A DNA stretch of 59,455 nucleotides from Desulfomonilia bacterium (lineage in GTDB: Bacteria > Desulfobacterota > Desulfomonilia > UBA1062), in NCBI GenBank assembly GCA_049975365.1, contig JBNGDS010000005.1, positions 17,541-76,995 of the forward strand. The letters run 5' to 3'. A program made the translations under genes and the position numbers. Below are positions 4,867-50,994 of this stretch, piece after piece (positions within the stretch are counted from its first letter, which is position 1; every line of letters starts with the position of its first letter). The notes under the pieces were generated by a model, which did no database searches, was not told the origin of the DNA, and saw only the letters and a program-made list of their open reading frames with translations.

Positions 4867-5463
4867 TCAGATCTCTGACTCCTGAACGGGGGGAACAGGA
4901 GATAATGCTGCCTCGAGATCCTCCCAGAATCGCGCTCGTTTCTCCGATGTGGGATCGGACAGGGCAGGGAATTCCAGAAACGGCACGTCAATGCCCTCCC
5001 GGAGGAATTCCTCGGAGAGAATCTCTGCCATGATGCCCATGAGAACCGGATCATCCTTTCCCGGTCTGTCTTCGGGGTTGGGGGATTCGGTTCCATACTT
5101 GTTCACCTTGTGCTTCCCCCAGTGAATGCCGCAGGTCGGGCTGTTCTCAAGGCCGATGAAGCAGCTTAACGTGTAGCGGTTCTTGATGAATTCCTTGACC
5201 ATGAGCAGAGGAACCTTGAGGAGTTCCTTGCAGTGATCCCTGAAAAAGATGTTGTCGTACTGCTGACGTCCCTGAGGGTTGCGCATCAAGCCCATTGCCG
5301 TTGTCTCAGGACAGGAATACTGGATGATGCCGATATTCTTCCTCAACAGATAGTTCATCAGTTCCAAAGACAAGGGAAAATTCTGGCCAAGGATGTGAAC
5401 CCTGCAGTAGGGATTGACGAGACACTGGCAGATGAGGACGATTCGTTTGTTCTTTCTGCTCAT
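4867..5463 (-). CDS. Cys-rich hypothetical protein (possibly DUF523/TudS-related)
   Basis: Clean ORF, convergent with the glycosylase gene with a 4-nt gap. N-terminal VLICQCLVNPYCRV and later SCPE / SPTCG Cys motifs. The family assignment is tentative. Confidence 0.55.
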   Translation of the reverse strand: MSRKNKRIVLICQCLVNPYCRVHILGQNFPLSLELMNYLLRKNIGIIQYSCPETTAMGLMRNPQGRQQYDNIFFRDHCKELLKVPLLMVKEFIKNRYTLSCFIGLENSPTCGIHWGKHKVNKYGTESPNPEDRPGKDDPVLMGIMAEILSEEFLREGIDVPFLEFPALSDPTSEKRARFWEDLEAALSPVPPVQESEI

Positions 5464-5688
5464 ACGCTTGACCTTTCCAGCACTATGGATATCTGTCTGT
5501 TATACGCCGTGCATGAAAAAATGCAATGCCCCACTGACCATGGTAAACATGAGGGAGCTGTACGACGTCGGATACATGGCTCTGTGACAAACACCCCCGG
5601 CTGTGGTACACTGCCTATGAAATCAGTGGATACGCTTAAACCGAATGTGTATAGAGAGAGCCTGTATTGGGGAGGGAGAAGAATCAGG

Positions 5689-7083
5689 ATGAATCAGGAG
5701 ACAATACGAGCATTGATCAACCCTGAGTCCATTGCACTGGTGGGAATACCGAGGGGATTCAAACCGGGAAAAGTGTTTCTGCTGGGACTGCTCGATCAGG
5801 GGTATCAGGGCAGGATCCACCTGGTGCACCCTTGTGCCGGGGTCATCGATGGAATGACTGCGCATGCCTCCCTGATGGATGTGCCGGAATCTGTTGATAT
5901 GGTCATTGTTCTGTCCCCGAGGGAGAGTGTCTGGGATGTCCTTCACCAGTGCACACAGAAAAACGTGAAGGTCGTGGTGCTCTATACATCGGGATTCTCT
6001 GAATGGTCAGGGGAGCAGGGAAGCGAGGATGAAGCGAGTATGCGCAATATTGCGCACTCTGGAGGGTTCAGGATTATCGGCCCGAATTGCATGGGGATCT
6101 ACTGCCCGGAGGCTAGGCTTGCCCCGTTCCCGTTCATGCCGAAGCACTCAGGAAGAATCGGGTTTCTCACCCAGAGCGGATCCCTCATGACTCTCTTCAT
6201 CAATACGTGTTCTGCAAAAAAACTCTTCTTCCATTCGGTCATCAGCATCGGGAACAGTTGCGATATCGATCTGATCGATCTCATCGAGTGGATGTATTCC
6301 GAGGAGAAGGTAGGCATGATCTGCTCGTACTGCGAGGGGGTGGATGATCCCGGGGCCCTGCAGGCTGTGCTCCGGAAATTCTCCGGGAGAAAACCCCCCA
6401 TCATGTGGAAAGTGGGAAACACAGACGCAGGCAGAAAGGCGGCGGCGTCTCATACCGGATCCATTGCAGGACAGAGCCATCTTTGGGAAGGGATGTTCCG
6501 GCAGTTCGGCGTCATCCAGGTCTCGGATATCGAGGAGATGACGGATAGTGTCATGGCGTTCTCCCATCTCCCGCTGACTGGCTCCGGCAGGGTCGTCATT
6601 GTATCCGGGCCAGGTGGCCCCGCCGTTTCCGCGGCCGATGCAGTGGAACGGAATGCCTTGACGATGGCCTCTCTTTCTGGACCCACCAGACGAAGGCTGG
6701 AAAAGATTCTCCCCCCTACGGGGACATCTCTGGCCAATCCCGTAGACGTGGGGCTCGGGGCATCGTTTGAGCTGGGCTACTACCTGGATGCCCTCGAGAT
6801 CCTTGTCGAAGATCCGGGCATCGATGCCATCATGGTCCTGGGGGGAGGGGCGACCGACGAACTGAATCAGGCGTATGTGGAGGGAATCCTCAGGGTGAAA
6901 CAGACCTCGGACAAGCACATCATTGCCATCGCGTACCCGGGATTCATCCAGGATGAAGAGGTTCTCGTGCCCCTGTACGAGCAGGGAATCCCTGTGTACA
7001 CCACACCGGAGAGGGCAATGCGAGCCTATGCCCGACTCATGGCCTTTGCCAGGTTTCAGAAGGAACGGGCTGGTTACGGGTAG
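5689..7083 (+). CDS. CoA-binding / ADP-forming acyl-CoA synthetase alpha-type protein (no ATP-grasp domain)
   Basis: IALVG...GP, IIGPNCMG, GFLTQSG and PVDVG motifs of the succinyl-CoA-synthetase-like fold. The ATG at 5689 is preceded by GGAGGGAG. The 5233-5688 part of the tracked ORF overlaps the divergent gene and looks non-coding. Confidence 0.75.
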   Translation: MNQETIRALINPESIALVGIPRGFKPGKVFLLGLLDQGYQGRIHLVHPCAGVIDGMTAHASLMDVPESVDMVIVLSPRESVWDVLHQCTQKNVKVVVLYTSGFSEWSGEQGSEDEASMRNIAHSGGFRIIGPNCMGIYCPEARLAPFPFMPKHSGRIGFLTQSGSLMTLFINTCSAKKLFFHSVISIGNSCDIDLIDLIEWMYSEEKVGMICSYCEGVDDPGALQAVLRKFSGRKPPIMWKVGNTDAGRKAAASHTGSIAGQSHLWEGMFRQFGVIQVSDIEEMTDSVMAFSHLPLTGSGRVVIVSGPGGPAVSAADAVERNALTMASLSGPTRRRLEKILPPTGTSLANPVDVGLGASFELGYYLDALEILVEDPGIDAIMVLGGGATDELNQAYVEGILRVKQTSDKHIIAIAYPGFIQDEEVLVPLYEQGIPVYTTPERAMRAYARLMAFARFQKERAGYG

Positions 7084-13764: not shown

Positions 13765-13985
13765 GTGATCTACCCCCGGTGCACTCCCACGGATCCTGTC
13801 CCAGGGACACAGCGTGAGGGAAGAGAACAGGCAGGCCCTGGGATGATCGTTCGGTCATGGTGTATCATGCTTCCTGCTTAATAATCACTCAGAGAATACA
13901 TGGCAACCTTTTCCTGTTCATTTCCTGTGGTTCTGAACATGCGGACGCTTTTCCCGGGAGAGCATTTGACCTGGAGGAGGAACCT

Positions 13986-14930
13986 GTGATAACAATGCAA
14001 CAAATTGATATGATAAAGAGTTTTTCTGATATTGATGCCATTGCCGAAGGAACACGCCCGCTGAGGCTTGCAGCCATGGCCGCGGACGAGAAGGAATTCC
14101 TGCTGACCGTCAAGATCGCTGCGGAGAAAGGCTATGTTCTTCCGCGGATCATCGGAGAGAGAGAAAAAATCCTGAGGGCAGCACAGGATATCGCATTTGA
14201 CCTTTCGGGAGTGGAAATCAGTGAAGTGAAGGATCCCCAGACAATCGCGGATACGGGCATCGGGCTCCTCTTTGGAGGACAGGTCGACATAGCAATGAAG
14301 GGGCATATACCCACCGCGTTCGTATACCGGTCCATCATACGAAACGAGCGAAAGATCGGTGGAAAAAAGACCATAAGCGTCAATACACTCTGGGATGTTC
14401 CCGATTCAGAGCACCTCATTACTATTACCGATACCGGGGTGAGCATTGCCCCTGGCTACGAAACCAAGAGAACAATCCTGGCCGATGCGGTCAATCTCAT
14501 GAGGCTCCTCGGGTATGAGCTCCCAAAGGTACTGGTCCTTTCTGCAACTGGGATACGAGAAGGCAGAGATGGACTCTCGGGTGATAGATCATCTCTCAAG
14601 GCTGACGCTGAGCACGGTGATTTCGGACCGTGCGAAGTGCTTGAAGCCACCTCGCTGTGGGATCTCTCCCTTCCACGGGAATCTCTTGCGCCTGCGATGA
14701 AAGATGCCTCTCCCGTTCCGGCCCCCCATGTCTTTCTCGTGCCTCACCTGGATGCCGGGAACATCCTTTCCAAACTCGATTTCATCCTGGATGTGATCAG
14801 GCGGTCTCTTGTGATGACCTCGCGGGGACCGGTGATCATTCCGTCGAGATCTGACACCCATCAGACCATCGTGGGGGAGATCGCCTTGGGTGTAGTCGTG
14901 GCACAGCGACTCCAGGAGGCGTCTCCATGA
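13986..14930 (+). CDS. phosphate acetyl/butyryltransferase family protein (PTA_PTB), paralogue 1
   Basis: PTA_PTB-like sequence (DIAMKGHI, ITDTGVSI). GTG 13986 lies 5 nt after GGAGGAGG. ATG 13995 is an alternative start. Confidence 0.8.
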   Translation: MITMQQIDMIKSFSDIDAIAEGTRPLRLAAMAADEKEFLLTVKIAAEKGYVLPRIIGEREKILRAAQDIAFDLSGVEISEVKDPQTIADTGIGLLFGGQVDIAMKGHIPTAFVYRSIIRNERKIGGKKTISVNTLWDVPDSEHLITITDTGVSIAPGYETKRTILADAVNLMRLLGYELPKVLVLSATGIREGRDGLSGDRSSLKADAEHGDFGPCEVLEATSLWDLSLPRESLAPAMKDASPVPAPHVFLVPHLDAGNILSKLDFILDVIRRSLVMTSRGPVIIPSRSDTHQTIVGEIALGVVVAQRLQEASP

Positions 14931-15832
14931 GGGCTCTTACAGAGTTCATCCACGATGCTGCCCACGCTGTCCGAAAACCCAGGCTGCTCTGTGTGCCTGC
15001 AGAGGAGAAGAGAATCCTCTCGGTGCTCCCCGATGTGTGTAACATGGTTCAGCCTGTTCTCGTGGGCAACAAAGACACCATCCACAAGGTCCTCGCGAGC
15101 TGTGGTGTTTCTCCCGGGGAATGGGAGATCATCCATGAGCCTGACAGAATCAAGGCATGTGAGAGGGCCCTTGAGCTATCCTGTCAGGACTCGGCGACAA
15201 TTGTCATGGAATCCGGAAAAGGAAGCCTGCTGCAGGAGATCCTCAAGGAAAAGCGCCACACACGATGGGGCATTCAGTGCCCTGCACATATCACCGTCGT
15301 TGATGATAGAGCGGGAGGGCAGGTATTCATGGTTGCAGACACGCTCATGCACCCGCGCCCAGACCTGAAAAACAAGGAAGCAATTCTCAACACGGCGCTC
15401 GCTGTTGCGAGGATTCTCGGCGCCCCCTATCCCAAGGTCGCCGCCCTTGCAGCACTGGAGTATGTGAATCACTCGATTCAATCAACCGTGGATGCTGCAG
15501 TGCTCTCAAAGATGGCCGAGAGGAATCAGTTCGGGGAGGCTTTTGTGGAGGGGCCGCTGGATATCGACTGCGCGGTGAGCAGAGACGCGTGCACACGGAA
15601 AAAGGTGAAGAGCATCATCACCGGTGAAGTGGATCTTTTCCTGGTCTCGGATGTGGAATCAGGGCAGTGTTTTCTCCAGTTCCTCTCTTTCTTCGGGAGG
15701 ATGGAACTCTGTGGGATTGTGGCAGGATACCCCTCGCCCCTGATCGTCACGATGCCATACGACACGGTCTTTGGGCGGATAGCCGCAGTAGCCCTCTCCT
15801 GCAGGCTCTGTGGGTACGCTGAATCAGCATGA
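14927..15832 (+). CDS. phosphate acetyl/butyryltransferase family protein (PTA_PTB), paralogue 2
   Basis: Second PTA_PTB-like ORF, with a 4-nt ATGA overlap with paralogue 1. Confidence 0.8.
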   Translation: MRALTEFIHDAAHAVRKPRLLCVPAEEKRILSVLPDVCNMVQPVLVGNKDTIHKVLASCGVSPGEWEIIHEPDRIKACERALELSCQDSATIVMESGKGSLLQEILKEKRHTRWGIQCPAHITVVDDRAGGQVFMVADTLMHPRPDLKNKEAILNTALAVARILGAPYPKVAALAALEYVNHSIQSTVDAAVLSKMAERNQFGEAFVEGPLDIDCAVSRDACTRKKVKSIITGEVDLFLVSDVESGQCFLQFLSFFGRMELCGIVAGYPSPLIVTMPYDTVFGRIAAVALSCRLCGYAESA

Positions 15833-16890
15833 CGATGCTTCTTGCCATCGACATAGGCTCCACCACGACACGCATCGCGGTGTCCCTGGAAAGAGAGAGA
15901 ATCATCAGAGGAGTGTTCAGGCACGAATCTCTTCCAGGGAAAACCCCCATGCATGAACTCCCCGCGAGAAAGCAGGCCATCGAGGACTTTCTCGCAAGGA
16001 ATGAGGTGAACACGGAAGAAGTAGATCTCATTGTCAGCAGGGGGGGGCTGCTCAAACCCGGCCCTTCGGGCATCTACCGGGTCAATGAAATCATGTGCAA
16101 CGATCTGGAGCATGGACGCTTCGGCTCACATTCGTCTGCCCTTGGTCCTCTGATTGCCTTTGAGATGGCTCGAAACATTGGAATAGACGCAGTGATCGTC
16201 GATCCTCCGAGTACTGACGAGTTCTCAGATCTTGCCCGCATGTCCGGGATGCCGGATATACCGCGCAGGAGCGCTTTTCATGCCCTGAATCAGAAAGCGG
16301 CAGCCAGACGGGCATGCCGAGAGATGGGAATGGCATACGAGGATGCACATCTCATTGTTGCACACATGGGAGGCGGCATCACCGTGGGCGCACACGTTCT
16401 GGGATCCGTTGTCGATGCAACCCACGGGTTGGCCGAGGGGCCATTCACACCAGAGCGGGCAGGATCACTGCCCACCCTTGCGCTCATCGAGCATGTGCTT
16501 GAATCTGGTCTCACGATGGAAGAGGCGAGGACACTCCTTGTGGGTGGCTCCGGCATGTACGCGTACCTTGGGACGCGGGACGCCAGAGCAGTAGAGAACT
16601 GGATCAGGAACGGAGATGAACAGGCTCGAGCCGTCTACCAGGCAATGGCCTATCAGGTGGCAAAAGAGATCGGGGCTATGGCAGTTGTCCTCACTCGTTA
16701 TCCTGACACCATCATCCTTACAGGCGGCCTCGCCGAGTCTGAGATGTTCACGGGGTGGATCTGCGAGATGGTTGGTTTTCTGGGTGATATCAGGATATAT
16801 CCCGGGGAAGACGAGATCGAGGCCCTCATCGAGGCCGGGTTCCTGGCCCTGAATTCTCCCCAGCTGATCAGGGAATACCCTCCATCCTGA
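15829..16890 (+). CDS. buk: butyrate kinase-like (acetate/propionate/butyrate kinase family)
   Basis: LAIDIGSTTT N-terminal ASKHA motif, ~353 aa, HMGGGITV. 4-nt overlap with the preceding gene. Confidence 0.85.
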   Translation: MTMLLAIDIGSTTTRIAVSLERERIIRGVFRHESLPGKTPMHELPARKQAIEDFLARNEVNTEEVDLIVSRGGLLKPGPSGIYRVNEIMCNDLEHGRFGSHSSALGPLIAFEMARNIGIDAVIVDPPSTDEFSDLARMSGMPDIPRRSAFHALNQKAAARRACREMGMAYEDAHLIVAHMGGGITVGAHVLGSVVDATHGLAEGPFTPERAGSLPTLALIEHVLESGLTMEEARTLLVGGSGMYAYLGTRDARAVENWIRNGDEQARAVYQAMAYQVAKEIGAMAVVLTRYPDTIILTGGLAESEMFTGWICEMVGFLGDIRIYPGEDEIEALIEAGFLALNSPQLIREYPPS

Positions 16891-19375: not shown

Positions 19376-21841
19376 TCACTCGATCCTGAGCGCCCTCAGG
19401 CGGAGAGAGTTTACAATCACGGATACCGAACTGAAACTCATGGCTGCTGCAGCGATCATGGGGCTCAACAGGAGTCCGAACACGGGGTAGAGAACACCTG
19501 CAGCCAGCGGCACACACAGGGCGTTGTAAAAGAATGCGAAGAACAGATTCTGCTTGATATTGCGCATGGCAGCCATGCTGAGGACGCGTGCGTTCACGAT
19601 ACCCCTGAGATCACCTTTGACCAGGGTAACCCGGGCACTCTCCATGGCCACATCGGTACCAGTCCCCATCGCGATTCCCACGTGTGCCTGGGCAAGTGCA
19701 GGAGCATCGTTGATGCCGTCTCCCGCCATCGCTACAATTTTTCCCGAGTCCTGCAGGGTTTTCACCTCAAAGGCCTTGTCCTGTGGCAGGATTTCTGCCT
19801 TTACTTCGTCAATCCCAAGCTGTTCAGCCACAAAGCGGGCAGCCGCGGCATTGTCCCCAGTCAGCATCACGATCCTGATACCTGCCTGATGAAGGCGATC
19901 GATTGCGGCAGGGGAAGTCTTCTTGATGGGGTCCGAGACGCTGATGGCACCGGAGACGATGCCGTCTACAGCAATGTACAGGACGCTCTGACCGGAATCC
20001 CGAAGATGCCGTGTGCGTTCTTCAAGATCATCTGGATTCATGTCGAGTTCAGAGAGGAATCGGGCAGTTCCAACAGCGACATGACGTCCATTCACCGTCC
20101 CCGTGACTCCCTTACCTGGGTGTGAGGTAAAATCCTCTGAAGTTGCCAGAGAAACACCACGTGATTCTGCCCCTTGTATGATGGCGCTGGCAAGCGGGTG
20201 TTCACTCCCGCGTTCCAGACTCGCGGCAAGCCCCAGGAGTGTCCGCTCATCCCAATCCGGTGATGAGACGATTTCCGTCAGCTGCGGTTTTCCCTCAGTC
20301 AGCGTCCCGGTCTTGTCGAGAACGAGGGTATCGACTTTCCGCATGGTCTCAATGGCTTCTGCATCCCTGAACAGGACCCCGAGTGTCGCACCCTTCCCTG
20401 TGGCTACCATGATGGACATGGGGGTAGCCAGTCCAAGAGCACACGGGCAGGCAATGATGAGAACGGATACCGCCGCTATGACTGCATAGGCCAACCGCGG
20501 TTCAGGTCCGATCAGTGACCATATAAGAAACGCGATCCCCGAGACCAGGATCACTGCGGGAACAAAATACCCGGAGACTACATCGGCGAGCCTCTGTATA
20601 GGAGCCCTGCTCCTCTGCGCCTCGGAGACCATCTGGACGATCTGGGCGAGGACTGTGTCTGATCCGACCTTTTCGGCCCTCATCAAAAGAGATCCGGTTG
20701 TGTTTACCGTGGCGCCCACCAGCGAAGCGCCGGATGACTTTTCCACAGGGATGGGCTCTCCTGTAATCATTGACTCATCAACGCTGCTTGTCCCTTCCAC
20801 CACGACTCCATCCACCGGGATCTTTTCACCCGGACGTATCCTCAACAGATCACCAGGGCGTACATCCTGGAGAGGCACATCCTCTTCTGATCCATCGGGG
20901 TTTACGTTCCTCGCGTATTTCGGAGCGAGTCCGAGCAGGGATCTGATGGCTTCACCGGTCTTGCTCCTGGCTCTCAGTTCCATGACCTGCCCCAGGAGCA
21001 CAAGGGTTACGATGACGGATGCGGCTTCAAAGTATACCCCTACCAGGCCCTCCGGGTTTCTGAAAGATTCGGGGAAGGCCCAGGGGAAGAGCAGGGCGAT
21101 GGTACTGTAGGTGAAGGAGACTAGGACCCCGAGCCCGATGAGGGTGAACATGTTCAAGCTTCGATGGAGCAGGGACTGCCATGCACGCTCGAGAAGAGGC
21201 CATCCTGCCCAGATCACAACCGGCGTTGCGAGAACCCCTTCAAGGAGAGAAAGAATCCTTCCCGAGAGCAGAGATTCGAGCATTGCGAGCCCGAGCATGT
21301 CCCGCATGGCGATGACAAACACGGGGATGGTGAACACAAGCCCGAACCAGAAGCGTTTCTTCATGTCTTCGTATTCGGGGGAGATCTCCTCTCCGGCGGA
21401 TGGAGAAATCTGCTCCAGGGCCATGCCGCACTTCGGACACGATCCCGGAGTGTCCTGCACGATCTCCGGGTGCATTGGGCATGTCCAGCGAGAACCTCCC
21501 AGGAACAGACCCGGAGATTCACGCTCCAGGGTCATCCCGCACTTTGGGCACGAACCGGATGAGGGGGCATGGACTTCTGGATGCATGGGACAGGTATATG
21601 CTCCAGCGGCGTGGTCTCCAGAGGATGATCCATGCATTCGGCCAAGATAGCGTTCCGGGTGCTTGCGGAATGCCTCCATGCACTGCATGCTGCAGAAATA
21701 ATAGGTCTTTCCCTTGTACTCCAGGGGGTGAAATGCAGTGCTGTCATGTGTTCTCATCGAGCACACCGGATCCACAAATTCAGATCTTTCCTCGGCTGTA
21801 TGACTCTGACAGCACTGATTGGTCTTCTCGGTATCCTCCAT
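19376..21841 (-). CDS. copA: heavy-metal (Cu/Ag-type) translocating P1B-type ATPase with a YHS-like plus 2x CPMHPE...CPKCGM N-terminus
   Basis: CPC motif ([13 protein letters not shown]), [15 protein letters not shown]. Start chosen at the ATG (MEDTEK) preceded by AAGGGAG. The tracked ORF extends to a TTG at 21955. Confidence 0.85.
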
Positions 21842-22011
21842 GGCCGCTCCCTTCATCGAGCGTGCGGGTTCTTGGTCCTCTGTTTTGCTGCGTGTGTCAT
21901 GCTCTCTGCCAGAATCCGCGTTCTGTCTTACCGTGATACATAATGTCAGGTGCAAGAGATATCAAGGAACCAGGAGGTTCCCGTCCCATCCAGGGGAGTG
22001 GAGAACGCGGA

Positions 22012-27998: not shown

Positions 27999-30073
27999 GC
28001 ACGAAAGACCTGCTTTTCGAGATCGGCACCGAGGAGATTCCTTCCGGGTTCATTCCACCAGCGCTCAGGTTCATGAAGACCTTTGTAGAAGGGAGACTTT
28101 CCGCCATCAAGATCGAGGGAGGCCCTGTAGAGGTCTTCGGTACCCCGAGGAGACTTGCATTGAGGGTCAGAGGCCTCTCTGAGACGCTCCCTGACACAGT
28201 GGAAACACGGATGGGCCCTCCCAAGAACATCTCCTTCGACACGGAGGGAAATCCCACCAAGGCAGGAATCGGATTTGCTGCCTCAGCGGGGGTGGATATC
28301 TCCGAAGTCGTAATCCAGACAACGCCGAAGGGGGAGTATTTAAGTGTCACCAGGACCATCCCAGGCAAGCCGGCAGTGGACGTTCTCCCGGCCCTTCTGG
28401 AAGAGATGGTCTCTGCCATGCCCTTTCCCAAGACCATGAGGTGGTCGAATCCCGGGGTCCGGTTCGCCCGTCCCGTGCACTGGCTCCTGGCCCTGTTCGG
28501 GGACACGGTCCTCCCGGTGAAATTCGGATCCATCGTTGCATCTGATACGACCTATGGGAACCGGTTCATGTCGCCATCTCCGTTTTCCCTGAACAGCCCA
28601 CAGCAGTATGAGGACCTTCTTGCTGAACACGCTGTGATTGCAGACATTGACACGAGAAAGGCGATGATCTGGAAAGAGATAGAAGACCAGGCACAGGCAA
28701 TCGGCGCTGTGGTGAAGGACAAAGACCTCCTTGACGAAGTTGCGGGATTGCTCGAATTTCCCCACGTGATCGTTGGGTCCTTCAGCGAAGATTTTCTCGC
28801 CCTCCCGCCAGAGGTGCTCGTGACCGTGATGAAGCATCATCAGAGATACTTCCCCCTGTATTCAAATACTGAGAACAATCGTCTCGTTCCGTACTTCTGC
28901 GCTGTGAGCAACGTCGTGCCCACGAACGACAGCACTGTGAGAACAGGATATGAACGAGTGCTCAAGGCCAGGCTCGACGATGCCAGATATTTCTTCACCG
29001 AGGATCTCAAGACCCCCCTTGAGACGTATGCACAGAGACTCGAGAATGTAATCTTTCACAAGGACCTCGGGACATCCGCGGACAAGGTCGCGCGGTTCAC
29101 CGCGGTGGCCATCAGCCTTGCGGAAAAACTTGATCCTGAAAAAAAAGAGATCGTGAAAAAGGTCGCCTCCCTGTGCAAAGGCGATCTCAACAGCCTCATG
29201 GTCTATGAACTACCCGAGCTTCAGGGGATCATGGGGAGGGAATACGCCCTCCGCCAAGGCCACGACAGGGAAACCGCAATAGCCATCCATGAGCACTACC
29301 TGCCGGCCTCTGCTGAAGATGCACTTCCCTCAGGGGTTGTGGGTGACATCGTGGGTATTGCCGACAGGATCGATACCATCTGCGGCTTTTTCGGCATCGG
29401 TATGGTCCCGAGTGGTACCTCAGACCCCTACGCCCTCAGGAGGCAGGCGATTGCCATCGAGAACATCCTCCTGGAGAAGGGGTACCGTATCTCGATCCCG
29501 TGGCTCATCGGCGAGTCCCTCACACACCTCAAACATTCACTGAAGAGACCTGAGGGCGAGGTGAAACAGGATGTGCTCACCTTTTTTGCGAACCGGTTCG
29601 TTTCAATTCTTCAGGCGCGGGGGATCCCTGGAGATACGATCGAGTCCGTAATTGCATCCTTCGATGATCCCCTCGACACGTTCAAGCGCGCTGAGGCAAT
29701 AGAACTGGTGAGAAGGGAGCAGTGGTTCCCCGCCATCTGTGCGGCGAGCAAGCGCGTGGAAAATATCCTCAAGAAAACCGAGGCCGGCAATGAGGTGAAC
29801 CAGGAGCTGTTCTCTCAGGACGAGGAACGGGATCTCTTCCGGGCTTTCCAAGACATAGAAAACTCCTTCATTGTTCGTGCCGGAAAGGGAGACTATGCCT
29901 CTGCCTTGAAGCTGCTCTCAAGCCTCAAGGATCCCATAGACAGGTTTTTCGAGGGGGTTCTGGTTATGAGCGATGACCCAAACGTCAGGAACAACAGAAT
30001 TGCACTCCTGAAATCCCTCATCCAACTGTTCGACAGGGTTGCGAAGTTCTCAAAGATAACACCCCAGCAATGA
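27995..30073 (+). CDS. glyS: glycine--tRNA ligase beta subunit
   Basis: [12 protein letters not shown]-terminus, ~690 aa. 4-nt overlap with glyQ. Confidence 0.95.
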
Positions 30074-31162: not shown

Positions 31163-31179
31163 GCCCATCACCGATGAGC
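31163..31179 (-). promoter_or_regulatory. candidate SECIS-like hairpin 2 (for the C-terminal TGA of the glutaredoxin-like gene)
   Basis: In minus-strand RNA, GCUCAUC-GGU-GAUGGGC starts 11 nt after TGA 31193-31191. One pair is G-U on this strand and would be a C-A mismatch on the other strand. No U-run follows. Confidence 0.45.
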
Positions 31180-31181
31180 CG

Positions 31182-31394
31182 TCACACTCCTCAAGAACCG
31201 CCGTACCCGACCTGTACGGTTCCTCCCTCCACAATGACCGGAACAACACGTCTCCCGCCCGAGAGCTTGAGCATCTCTTGAAGCTTGGAATTGTCTTTCT
31301 TCACATCGTAGTACGCAGCTTTTGACCCATAGGCCGACCTGGCCTGGTCTGTATACGGTCAACCTGCCTTTCCGTAGATGATGATGTCAGACAT
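31182..31394 (-). CDS. glutaredoxin-like selenoprotein candidate (Sec at codon 12; possible second Sec at codon 68)
   Basis: GGAGG-N7-ATG. Translation: MSDIIIYGKAG-TGA-PYTDQARSAYGSKAAYYDVKKDNSKLQEMLKLSGGRRVVPVIVEGGTVQVGYGGS-TGA-GV-TGA. The first TGA (31361-31359) sits where glutaredoxins carry the CPYC active-site Cys. If the second TGA is a true stop, the CDS is 31191..31394. Confidence 0.7.
31324..31349 (-). promoter_or_regulatory. candidate SECIS hairpin 1
   Basis: In minus-strand RNA, 9 nt after UGA: GACC-AGGCC-[AGGUC]-GGCCU-(AUG bulge)-GGUC. The apical loop contains GGUC, as in the E. coli fdhF SECIS. Confidence 0.6.
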
Positions 31395-31424
31395 ACAACG
31401 ACCTCCAGAATATGGGTACTGATG

Positions 31425-31453
31425 GACTATAGCGTGAGAGAAACGAGAGGGCA
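31425..31453 (-). promoter_or_regulatory. sigma70-like promoter candidate for the glutaredoxin-like gene
   Basis: On the minus strand, TTGCCC-N17-TATAGT lies ~30 nt upstream of the ATG. Confidence 0.45.
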
Positions 31454-31495
31454 AGGGTATTCAATGCCGGAACAGCTCAGGAGAAGATTCTTCTC

Positions 31496-32752
31496 CTATG
31501 TCCATTCACGCTTGTCCACAAGTGGCTTTGCATCCCCCGCGATGCTTCCCGGCGCAACAAACTCCACCCGGTCAACCTTGACCGTACAGATTTCCTGGAA
31601 CATCCGTTCAAAGTGCTCAGGAAAACCGATTCTGTCGATCTGGGTGTCCCGCGGATCGATTCGTGCAGTCAGGATATCCCGGTGACCTTCCCGTTCTATG
31701 ACAAGCTGCATGGAGGTGCCGGGAAACGTTTCTGCGAGATGTTTCACCTGGCTCGGGGCCACGAACATACCGCGTACTTTCACCGCATCCCCCACGCGTC
31801 CCGCGATGCCGGCAAGCCGGAGACTCGTCCTGCCACAGGGGCATGGTTCTACGATCAGCCGTGAAAGATCCCCGGTCCCGAACCGAAACAGGAAGAACTG
31901 TGAATTCAGGCGGGTCACCACCACCTCGCCCAACTCTCCCTGACCGACATGTCTCCCAGTTGCCGGATCAACGAGCTCAACGATCACCTCCTCGCAGATA
32001 TGCCATCCATTTTTTTCTGGACATTCATAGGCGACATCGCCCACTTCGGTGGCCCCGTACATCTGATAGGTATCGATCCCGAACTCTGTATCAAATCGCT
32101 TCCGCAGCGATGGTTGGAGAGGCTCTGCAGCAAAACACGCCCGTTTCACGGAAAAGTCTGTCGCGAAGGAGTAGCCCATCTCGTGGGCCTTTTCGATGAT
32201 GGCAATGAGGAAACTCGGCGTACCGGTATATCCGGTAATGCCGAGGTCTTTGATGAGCTGAACCTGCTGCTGGGATGACGATGTGCCCGAAGGAACAACA
32301 GTAGCGCCCACACGGGCGAGGCCGCCATGAAAGGTAAGTCCGGCCGCTACCATATGGTAGGAGAAGGCATTGAGCACCACGTCGCCTGGTTTGAAACCAG
32401 CTGCCGCGTAGGCACGAGCCCACAGAGGATCATGAGATCCCAGATGTGGTTCATACACCGGACCTGGTGACGTGAATATTCTCTCGATGGGGGCTCCAGG
32501 GTCCGTAAGCCCTCCAAAGGGGGGATCCTGTGCCTCGAGTTCCACAAGCTGTTCCCTGGTTATGACCGGCAGGCGTACAAGGTCTTGTATTCCCTGAATA
32601 TCTGATGGGGTCACTCCCTGCTCGTCCATCATCTTTCTGACCCGTGGAGAGCGCTCATACCCAAGGCGAACCATTTCAGCAATCCTGGAGTTCATGTATG
32701 CATCGCGTTCATCTCGTGGCAGGGTTTCTTTTTCATCAAAATAGGTTGACAT
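31496..32752 (-). CDS. PaaK / coenzyme F390 synthetase-like adenylate-forming enzyme (phenylacetate--CoA ligase family, divergent)
   Basis: ~420 aa with YGATE, FGTGD and GRVGDAVKVRG motifs. Start at the ATG (MSTYFDEKE) preceded by GAGGAGG-N6. The tracked ORF extends to 32782. Confidence 0.7.
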   Translation of the reverse strand: MSTYFDEKETLPRDERDAYMNSRIAEMVRLGYERSPRVRKMMDEQGVTPSDIQGIQDLVRLPVITREQLVELEAQDPPFGGLTDPGAPIERIFTSPGPVYEPHLGSHDPLWARAYAAAGFKPGDVVLNAFSYHMVAAGLTFHGGLARVGATVVPSGTSSSQQQVQLIKDLGITGYTGTPSFLIAIIEKAHEMGYSFATDFSVKRACFAAEPLQPSLRKRFDTEFGIDTYQMYGATEVGDVAYECPEKNGWHICEEVIVELVDPATGRHVGQGELGEVVVTRLNSQFFLFRFGTGDLSRLIVEPCPCGRTSLRLAGIAGRVGDAVKVRGMFVAPSQVKHLAETFPGTSMQLVIEREGHRDILTARIDPRDTQIDRIGFPEHFERMFQEICTVKVDRVEFVAPGSIAGDAKPLVDKREWT

Positions 32753-49517: not shown

Positions 49518-49700
49518 GAACAGATTCTCACTGATGTGTGACGGCGGGCGGGTACATGCAAAGGATGTCCGGGGCCTCATTCCACGGGACATAGTGAAAA
49601 ATCACGAACGCGCGGGAGACATGGGTGATCAGTACCCTGGACACGGATACAGCTTTACAGTGATGGGACAAAGACACTTCAAGTGGATGTGGTGGGCGGT

Positions 49701-49943
49701 CTATGCCTTCTTCTTGGCCAGGAGGTACCCGAATGCAAGCCCGATGAGGAAGAAGAAGCTGATCACGATCCACTTGGGACCGGTAAAGAGCGTCCAGATG
49801 AGGAACTGGAATGAGGTCTGCTCGAAGTTCTGAAGGATGAAGATAAATCCGAGAGCAACCGCGACACCGATGATGATGAGCTTGGTTGTACCATCGAGAT
49901 CCTTGAACACAATCTTCCCTCTCCATGCGGAACTGTCAGCCAC
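49701..49943 (-). CDS. small two-TM membrane protein (LapA/DUF1049-like)
   Basis: 80 aa, two hydrophobic helices and a basic C-terminus (LLAKKKA). Confidence 0.55.
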   Translation of the reverse strand: MADSSAWRGKIVFKDLDGTTKLIIIGVAVALGFIFILQNFEQTSFQFLIWTLFTGPKWIVISFFFLIGLAFGYLLAKKKA

Positions 49944-50400
49944 GAATATTGCATGCCCTGCGCAGGTGTGTCAACAGCTGAGTGGACGTCTGGGGCATGG
50001 GGATGGTTTTTCTTCCCAGAAGAATTGAATTTAATGTATGTCTTCGTCTCCAGGGCGTGGAAACGTGAACGCCTCGTTGGTTGCCCCTCATGGAGTGAAT
50101 GCGATAATTTGGAGGACAGGGAGGGGAGATGAACAATACGGTCTGGAGCATGAGAACCACGAAGGATGCCAGGTTCCCCGACCGAGTGTGCACCTTCCAG
50201 TCAGGAAGAAGTATACTCCACCTCCTTCTCCCATGCCACCTTCACGGTAAAAAATGAAGTTCGGGTTCACACAACTTGTTTTTTCTGGATGACGCCATCA
50301 TCCCGCTGTGCTGAAGGAAAATCAAGGGAACTTCCCTATCATGGAGTAGACTTTTTGATTTGAAGATGGCATGAGTTGTTATTGACGCGAAGGAGGGTAT

Positions 50401-50994
50401 ATGGGTGATTGCTTTCGAAAGCGGGTATATGATCTGGGCAGTTTCTTTCGTGATGTTGGTTCATTGGGGAAGGATAGTATCGCGTTGATAGTCGCTTTTT
50501 ATTCCGGTAGGGTCAACAAGGCCTTTCGTGAAAAATTGAGTATGGCTGTAACTGGTGTCCTTGGTTGCCGGTATTGCTCATGGCTGCACTCAGAGATGGC
50601 ACTTTCACATGGTGTCAAATCTGAAGAACTCCAGAAGATCCTTTCAAATGAACTTGGTGATTTCCCGCAGGAACAAGCGGTTGCTCTCGCCTTTGCTCAG
50701 CATTACAGTGAAACAGGTGGAAAACCTCAAATACAGACAGAACAACGGTTTTATGAATTCTATGGCCCTGAAATTTCTAGGGACATACTGCTCAACATAA
50801 AGATTATTTATTTTGGCAATCTGTCAGGAAACACCATCGATGCCTTTTTCAGTCGAGTGAAAGGTGCGCCACACGAAGAAAGCAGCCTATGGAGCGAATT
50901 GGTCATCCTTTTTCTGCTCGGACCGTATTTCTTTATCGTACTTCCACTGCTTGCCTTTGCTTTTCATTACAGAACTCAACTGAAAAGAAGCTGA
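50401..50994 (+). CDS. carboxymuconolactone decarboxylase/AhpD-like protein with a C-terminal membrane anchor
   Basis: CRYCSWLH (CxxCxxxH) motif and a hydrophobic C-terminal ~30 aa. SD GAAGGAGGG upstream. Markedly lower GC and A/T-ending codons compared with neighbouring genes. Confidence 0.7.
   Translation: MGDCFRKRVYDLGSFFRDVGSLGKDSIALIVAFYSGRVNKAFREKLSMAVTGVLGCRYCSWLHSEMALSHGVKSEELQKILSNELGDFPQEQAVALAFAQHYSETGGKPQIQTEQRFYEFYGPEISRDILLNIKIIYFGNLSGNTIDAFFSRVKGAPHEESSLWSELVILFLLGPYFFIVLPLLAFAFHYRTQLKRS

Follow-up and report, generated by a model that had tools for sequence, protein, structure and literature searches.

A glutaredoxin-like gene interrupted by two TGA codons

In the 59,455-nt stretch of Desulfomonilia contig JBNGDS010000005.1 analysed here (hereafter, the window), one short minus-strand frame raises the question of whether a sequence with two in-frame TGA codons in 70 can be an intact gene and, if so, how these codons are read. 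The computational evidence assembled below leads us to put the probability at about 85% that this frame (31182..31394, minus strand; 70 codons plus a terminal TGA) is an intact, genuine gene encoding a selenoprotein that has 70 residues and a glutaredoxin fold, belongs to UXX-star family 1 and carries selenocysteine (Sec) at both UGA codons.

The frame opens with an ATG (31394..31392, minus strand) preceded, across a 7-nt spacer, by the Shine-Dalgarno sequence GGAGG (31402..31406, minus strand), and its conceptual translation from 31394 to 31182 on the minus strand reads MSDIIIYGKAG-TGA-PYTDQARSAYGSKAAYYDVKKDNSKLQEMLKLSGGRRVVPVIVEGGTVQVGYGGS-TGA-GV-TGA. The first TGA (TGA1; 31359..31361, minus strand) is codon 12, and alignment with homologues places it in an active-site motif, codons 12-15 (TGA-CCG-TAT-ACA) reading U-P-Y-T. 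The second (TGA2; 31191..31193, minus strand) is codon 68 and, by comparison with homologues, belongs to a C-terminal motif GGS-U-GV-stop; the gene ends TGA-GGA-GTG-TGA (31193..31182), i.e. Sec-x-x-stop, with the true stop TGA at 31182..31184 (minus strand), two codons past Sec68. This is, base for base, the frame of the original prediction, which had also held that the gene escaped open reading frame (ORF) calling. Indeed, the sole ORF in the mechanical list at this place is an out-of-frame one of 64 aa (31168..31362, minus strand), since two codons of the gene are UGA. The locus is thus a clear case of a real gene, with two UGA in 70 codons, that is invisible to standard ORF calling, and one hidden Markov model search with a U-to-C translation suffices to recover it.

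Profile searches with the product, U being written as C, gave a score of 110.5 bits to NCBIfam NF041114, "UXX-star selenoprotein family 1" (an equivalog model; curated cutoff 72), with residues 4-70 aligned to profile positions 1-70 of 70. The parent model NF041212, "Uxx-star family glutaredoxin-like (seleno)protein", was matched over its full length at 86.1 bits (cutoff 66), and Pfam Glutaredoxin (PF00462) at 32.4 bits (threshold 22.9). A protein database yielded 77 homologues, and the RefSeq name of one of them, from Pelotomaculum (P0012), is "UXX-star selenoprotein family 1". The RefSeq family named when the gene was first noticed therefore exists, and the gene fits it. The proposal of two Sec codons within 70 residues is likewise supported, both by the TGA codons of homologues and by a 2026 review (PMC13188914) that lists this family, as "Distant Grx-like protein 1", with the motif UxxT and two Sec residues. 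That review credits the family to Zhang & Gladyshev 2008 (PMC2398784), where a "Grx-like" family is given as UxxC, not UxxT; UXX-star families 2 and 3 and the HUGP/GUXX-star fusion it attributes to Haft & Tolstoy 2025, family 2 having one Sec and the motif GxGU. The gene, itself unannotated, belongs to a family that has been curated and published and whose two-Sec architecture is already on record; with UXX-star selenoprotein family 1 already catalogued, recognition of the gene is a correct catch rather than a discovery.

Both TGA codons recur in homologues from several phyla

Related loci were drawn from genomes (21 loci, one genome per species) and from metagenomes, which gave 80. Because metagenomes were scanned for [CW]PYT, the genes recovered from them are almost exclusively of Cys type, which makes this set unusable for the frequency of the two-Sec form. 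At codon 12, 12 of the 16 close genome loci have TGA and the remaining 4 a Cys codon (TGT or TGC); TGA forms occurred in metagenome-assembled genomes (MAGs) of delta-proteobacterial/Syntrophales type and of beta-proteobacterial, Nitrospirota, Desulfobacterales and myxobacterial affiliation. Codon 12 aligned to Cys in about 80 loci from the [CW]PYT metagenome scan.

Codon 68 behaves differently, being TGA in 83/83 unique homologous coding sequences. Another in-frame stop is invariably found precisely +3 codons further on, where all three stop codons are in use (TAG 30, TGA 29, TAA 24), a mix that identifies this position, two codons past codon 68, as the true stop. Between the two, the residues are GV in 67/83 genes. 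A Cys in place of the tail Sec was encountered in a single locus, i.e. 1/84 unique genes (L111; GCA_037931745.1, a 1-kb contig, 526-831), where codon 68 is TGT and codon 12 is TGA; this gene supplies a Cys/Sec pair for the second TGA site. In L111 the following stop has changed to TGG, resulting in a 26-residue extension, and a hairpin resembling the second one described below (GCCGGCA-GGG-UGCCGGU) is retained. In the homologue alignment suggested with the original prediction, codon 12 thus corresponds to either Cys or TGA, and codon 68 to TGA except for the one Cys of L111. As judged from these sequences, the same two in-frame TGAs, together with the hairpins that follow them, recur in homologues from several phyla beyond chance expectation; two syntenic orthologues (L006 and L008) likewise retain both TGAs. 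The combination of a near-absolute tail Sec with free Cys/Sec switching at the active site may exceed what the available literature records.

TGA is an ordinary stop in this genome, ending 28/47 long ORFs in the window, and hence is not reassigned. Several metagenome gene calls have W at exactly both TGA positions, e.g. P0001 (GWPYT…GGSWGV); we read these calls as a translation-table artefact, which makes them an independent confirmation of the in-frame TGAs. Database entries including P0001, P0007, P0013, P0017, P0018, P0027, P0037, P0057, P0060 and others are either cut at …GYGG[ST] or have Trp at both TGAs, a TGA=Trp table apparently having been used. Sec-form genes of UXX-star family 1 are accordingly mis-annotated in a systematic manner in a large public protein collection. 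As a separate observation, one metagenome contig (LAZR01020152.1; L044:266-311) has TGG (Trp) at codon 12 and keeps both a hairpin of the first type and the C-terminal TGA-GV-stop; the TGG stems from either a recent mutation (TGA>TGG) or an error in sequencing.

Each TGA codon is followed by a SECIS-like hairpin

Both TGA codons precede RNA hairpins that are candidate selenocysteine insertion sequence (SECIS) elements. The first, SECIS1 (31324..31349, minus strand), is a bulged hairpin within the coding region, GACCAGGCC-AGGUC-GGCCU(AUG)GGUC (31349..31324), which begins 9 nt past TGA1, has the apical loop AGGUC and folds at -12.1 kcal/mol (z = -2.5). The second, SECIS2 (31163..31179, minus strand), is the 7-bp hairpin GCUCAUC-GGU-GAUGGGC (31179..31163) with loop GGU, beginning 11 nt past TGA2; as just two codons follow Sec68, it lies wholly past the stop codon, in the part left untranslated at the 3′ end (3′-UTR). 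The bare 17-nt hairpin reaches -7.2 kcal/mol (z = -3.6), a value equalled in 0/200 shuffles. Folding of a 44-nt context gives -12.2 kcal/mol for this strand and -5.9 kcal/mol for the other, the G-U pair rendering the hairpin strand-specific. No U-run follows the stem, and a terminator scan made no call there. The two hairpins are therefore present as first described, including the strand-specificity of the second and its lack of a U-run.

How well do they agree with bacterial SECIS elements? The published model (PMC13188914, Fig. 2A) specifies an upper stem of 4-16 bp capped by a 3-9-nt apical loop, a G at loop position 1 or 2 that is usually followed by G or U, a UGA-to-loop distance of 16-37 nt and a minimum free energy (MFE) of -7.5 kcal/mol or lower. 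In both hairpins of the window the apical loop lies 18 nt from the UGA. SECIS1, with a 5-nt loop, a 5-bp upper and a 4-bp lower stem, and SECIS2, with a 3-nt loop on a 7-bp stem, are within the prescribed dimensions, and the loops A-G-G-U-C and G-G-U place the G as required; loops in homologues are mostly GGU, GUU, GGUC and GUC. The energy of SECIS1 is below the threshold; that of SECIS2 is below it in the 44-nt context and above it for the bare hairpin, so that the result for SECIS2 hinges on the length of sequence considered.

Owing to its location wholly in the 3′-UTR, conservation of SECIS2 is not explicable by protein coding. Its MFE z-scores across loci were weak (mean -0.7) and, given that GC-rich shuffles also fold, a geometry test and covariation were used in their place. 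The geometry sought, namely a hairpin that begins 9-16 nt past the UGA, has a perfect stem of 6 bp or more and carries a G in its loop of 3-5 nt, was found in 61/79 unique loci as compared to 3.5 +/- 1.8 in dinucleotide shuffles (maximum 11). A covariance model built from 17 sequences located SECIS2 at the expected place in 72/78 loci. In the resulting alignment, which was fitted to the model and hence favours pairing, 92.6 % of cells were paired versus 56.5 % with shuffled partners and 35-41 % with slid partners, the slid controls carrying the same bias. Changes on both sides of a pair number 143, and covariation extends to each of the six pairs, so that the covariance check proposed for the second hairpin came out in its favour. 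Such quantified covariation of a bacterial 3′-UTR SECIS may go beyond the available literature, and the element offers a compact natural template for Sec placement near the C-terminus in bacteria. The same covariance model gave a weak second match inside glyS (29493-29531, minus strand; 13.5 bits, E = 0.34), which we take as chance.

For SECIS1, homologues with TGA and with Cys at codon 12 can be compared. A hairpin of this type (GC-rich stem, GG or GU loop, right distance) was found in 13/13 TGA-type versus 13/69 Cys-type genes (Fisher p = 2e-8), a comparison in which the genes are not phylogenetically independent. The stem shows compensatory variants (AGGCC/GGCCU, ACGCC/GGCGU and AAGGCC/GGCCUU), and is partly fixed by the Ala-Arg-Ser-Ala codons it overlaps.

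Predicted fold and a possible diselenide mechanism

Structural interpretation is based on the AlphaFold model of P0001, a homologue 79 % identical to the window protein. The model (mean predicted local distance difference test score, pLDDT, 89.6) has the order b1-a1-b2-a2-b3-b4, followed by an extended, Gly-rich tail and no C-terminal helix. Glutaredoxins account for all of the best PDB matches of the model, with template modelling (TM) scores of 0.7-0.77, among them Clostridium oremlandii cGrx1 and cGrx2. Residue 12 takes the place of the nucleophile, where helix 1 begins.

What might the second Sec do? Thr15, occupying the second position of the CxxC motif, is invariant in 45 aligned homologues, and the C-terminal TGA-x-x-stop is present in 95/95 loci with [C/U]-P-x-T. 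Four distant relatives with a full CxxC (L017-L020) end GGSxF-stop, without TGA. In the glutaredoxin fold, the loop after strand 4, which contains the GG motif, abuts the active site. Since the CxxC relatives lack a C-terminal Sec, we infer that Sec68 is the resolving partner of Sec12 and took over this role, a deduction that draws on the CxxC/tail-Sec complementarity and on general knowledge of the glutaredoxin fold. The complementarity, as far as it can be read from sequences, points to a diselenide or selenenylsulfide couple and may exceed the available literature in doing so.

The mechanism we propose would run as follows. At each UGA, SelB and Sec-tRNA(Sec) would bring about recoding to Sec after recruitment to a small G-loop hairpin that has its apical loop 18 nt downstream; of the two hairpins, SECIS1 would act from within the coding region and SECIS2 from entirely beyond the stop codon. 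Sec12 would occupy, at the N-terminus of helix 1, the position of the nucleophilic Cys of glutaredoxins, the usual second Cys being replaced by the invariant Thr, and its resolving partner would be Sec68, carried on the Gly-rich tail found where glutaredoxins have their last helix. Reduced protein would then be a diselenol and oxidised protein an intramolecular diselenide, the two forms alternating in the cycle; in Cys12 orthologues, the oxidised form would be a selenenylsulfide. That the two-Sec form does cycle via a Sec12-Sec68 diselenide, with the tail Sec as the indispensable catalytic residue and position 12 (Cys or Sec) as its partner, is a tentative proposal that we hold with rather low confidence. 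If true, the protein would be a natural bacterial diselenide oxidoreductase of very low redox potential served by a natural 3′-UTR SECIS. In any case, the conservation pattern, i.e. a near-invariant tail Sec, Cys or Sec at position 12, CxxC relatives without the tail Sec and a covarying SECIS placed past the coding frame, gives an uncharacterised family a testable mechanism. No report of diselenide chemistry demonstrated for UXX-star family 1 was found in the literature covered, which does not extend to Haft & Tolstoy 2025.

An alternative leaves the family identity as it is and assigns the two Sec residues a role as metal or metalloid ligands (for Hg, As or Cu) rather than as a catalytic couple. 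Metal binding is the role that PMC13188914 suggests for the Sec residues of UXX-star proteins. The window contains a CopA-type P-type ATPase (19376..21955, minus strand), and the Pelotomaculum orthologue adjoins a gene for an ArsR-type helix-turn-helix protein. However, CopA lies about 10 kb off in an unrelated unit, and metal-resistance genes are not retained as neighbours from one lineage to the next. Relocation of the resolving residue predicts the observed pattern, in which a tail Sec accompanies C/UxxT and is missing where there is CxxC, although a chelating pair could yield the same. On balance, we consider the ligand role unlikely, if still worth taking seriously.

Other readings of the TGA codons

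A further possibility is that only TGA1 encodes Sec, TGA2 being a real stop that yields a 67-residue product and hairpin 2 an element that stabilises the mRNA or acts as a terminator where the convergent genes meet. The protein does end at TGA2 in gene calls and in several database entries, hairpin 2 lies within a 32-nt gap between convergent genes, and the bare hairpin is 0.3 short of the -7.5 kcal/mol rule. Yet a plain stop would hardly be TGA in all 83 genes when TAG, TAA and TGA are all used two codons later, nor would it leave GV and the +3 spacing conserved behind it. The hairpin starts 9-16 nt past the TGA in nearly all loci, with a G-first loop and no U-run; L111 has a Cys at codon 68; and the curated NCBI model includes the U-x-x tail, the window protein matching through position 70. 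We therefore regard termination at TGA2 as very improbable. Scarcely credible is the idea of a decayed glutaredoxin pseudogene or of TGAs read otherwise (reassigned code, or near-cognate readthrough as Trp or Cys), to which metagenome pipelines lend some colour by giving W at both sites, e.g. in P0001, as does the lack of visible Sec machinery in the window, but against which stand the conservation of the frame, of the two hairpins and of the residues flanking each TGA, seen from phylum to phylum as well as in syntenic orthologues, the use of TGA as terminator of 28/47 long window ORFs, and the restriction of the W calls to the two TGA positions, which fits a translation-table artefact.

Gene integrity, family membership, the conserved TGAs and the conserved RNA structures are observed directly; actual Sec insertion at the UGA codons is deduced from these sequence features and is probable on their account. 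Several points weigh against Sec insertion at both UGAs or against the proposed use of the two residues. Bare SECIS2 narrowly misses the energy rule (-7.2 kcal/mol), and for SECIS1 the stem is in part dictated by codons and the genes compared are not phylogenetically independent. The Rfam SECIS families gave no match, either at the gathering threshold or at E = 10, in a comparison that is weakly informative because bacterial SECIS elements have little sequence in common (PMC13188914). The window contains no selA, selB, selD or tRNA-Sec: neither Sec machinery nor a second selenoprotein gene turned up when ~47 ORFs were annotated with NCBIfam models, every intergenic gap was scanned for read-through, and ARAGORN and Rfam were applied. 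The absence of Sec machinery says little, given that the window spans just 59 kb. The nearest relatives of the gene come from delta-proteobacterial/Syntrophales MAGs, a group that PMC13188914 counts among those with the most selenoproteins. Inserting Sec twice in succession should be inefficient, and a large share of translation may yield just an 11-residue peptide. For the U12-U68 couple the basis is the four CxxC outgroup loci together with general fold knowledge, the metal-binding role suggested by the review competes with it, and the literature covered furnished no experimental evidence for any member of UXX-star family 1.

Relation to known glutaredoxins and Sec-tailed proteins

With UXX-star family 1 the window protein shares a full-length match, the glutaredoxin-like fold, U-x-x-T, Sec-x-x-stop and two Sec residues, and there is no substantial difference, except that many members, including P0012 of Pelotomaculum, have Cys at the first position whereas in the window protein both positions are Sec. 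UXX-star families 2 and 3 (NF041211 and NF047338) and the HUGP fusion (NF045501) likewise have a glutaredoxin-like domain ending G-U-x-x-stop; against these models the window protein scored 56-61 bits, far under the cutoffs of 97, 100 and 325, respectively.

Classical dithiol glutaredoxins, such as E. coli Grx3 (PDB 3grx and 1fov), have in common with it the fold, the cis-Pro motif (VVPVI), the GG motif after strand 4 and a C-P-Y-type active-site position. They differ in that Thr replaces the second Cys of C-P-Y-C in the window protein, which scored 33.2 bits against the Grx3 model TIGR02181 (cutoff 90), and in their C-terminal helix, which completes the glutathione site and is absent from the P0001 model. 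Mammalian thioredoxin reductase has a Gly-Cys-Sec-Gly tail, and its expression in E. coli has made use of a SECIS engineered on the 3′ side. As in this enzyme, a flexible, Gly-rich Sec tail could shuttle redox equivalents in the window protein. The folds differ; in the reductase, Sec pairs with the adjacent Cys, whereas the presumed partner in the window protein is 56 residues away in sequence.

C. oremlandii cGrx1 (Kim et al. 2011, per PMC13188914) is, like the window protein, a small bacterial glutaredoxin with an N-terminal Sec nucleophile, and the structural neighbours PDB 7c10 and 4tr0 have TM-scores of 0.73-0.77 to the P0001 model. In cGrx1, however, the motif is U-x-x-C with the resolving Cys inside it, there is one Sec and the C-terminal helix is normal, as opposed to U-x-x-T, a second Sec on the C-terminal tail and a missing last helix in the window protein. 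SaoC (Cys-Sec-COOH; Haft & Gwadz, 10.1101/2022.07.06.499078) differs in fold but resembles the present gene in having Sec near the C-terminus and a SECIS past the stop codon, the SaoC example having a 7-bp stem with a GGU loop, as in SECIS2 of the window.

Genomic neighbourhood

The gene is located at the tail of a minus-strand unit encoding a Liv-type ATP-binding cassette transporter, an acyl-CoA ligase and a PaaK-like protein, and is convergent with plus-strand recO-glyQ-glyS-dGTPase-like genes. The 100-nt gap upstream of it contains a sigma-70-like promoter candidate, TTGCCC-N17-TATAGT (31426..31454, minus strand), matching the consensus at 9/12 positions. The site itself is thus as predicted. 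The independent expression that had been read into it is plausible on the strength of the consensus match, for which support is weak, given one site in the region versus 0.3 expected from shuffles; in L008 the -35 hexamer is conserved and the -10 is not, and the L006 spacer is an unrelated one of 600 nt. Gene order in L006 and L008 is as in the window, i.e. LivM-LivF-PaaK-like, the gene, a convergent dGTPase-like gene and glyS, with neighbour identities of 70-95 %. A 7-bp inverted repeat (31479-31497, minus strand; AGGAGAA-GAATC-TTCTCCT) overlaps the TAG stop of the upstream PaaK-like gene and is followed by no U-run; it could be a weak terminator or a processing site between the PaaK-like operon and the selenoprotein gene.

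In annotated contexts, no partner gene was conserved across lineages, those of Pelotomaculum/Firmicutes and of Brocadiae differing completely; when ORFs of the different loci were crudely clustered, spurious GC-rich ones dominated the outcome. Three Syntrophales MAGs with the Cys12 form (L001, L005 and L007) have a rubrerythrin-family gene (PF02915) ~50 nt downstream on the same strand, e.g. L005:3249-3740, which hints at an oxidative-stress context in that Syntrophales lineage. No such gene stands beside the homologue in the window or in the other lineages examined, and a shared downstream partner was rejected, the Firmicutes downstream gene being unrelated to the rubrerythrin-like gene of Syntrophales.

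Elsewhere in the window, 50401-50994 (plus strand) encodes a 197-aa carboxymuconolactone-decarboxylase/AhpD-like protein (Pfam CMD) with a C-R-Y-C motif; the family has Sec-containing members (PMC13188914), and this AhpD-like protein is a Cys form. The 883 nt upstream of this gene (49518-50400) hold no convincing ORF. Finally, two tandem phosphate butyryltransferase-like genes with a butyrate kinase (13857-16890, plus strand) and an ADP-forming acetate-CoA ligase (5233-7083, plus strand), together with the Liv/acyl-CoA-ligase/PaaK-like cluster, fit a fatty-acid- or aromatic-acid-degrading anaerobe of Syntrophales type.

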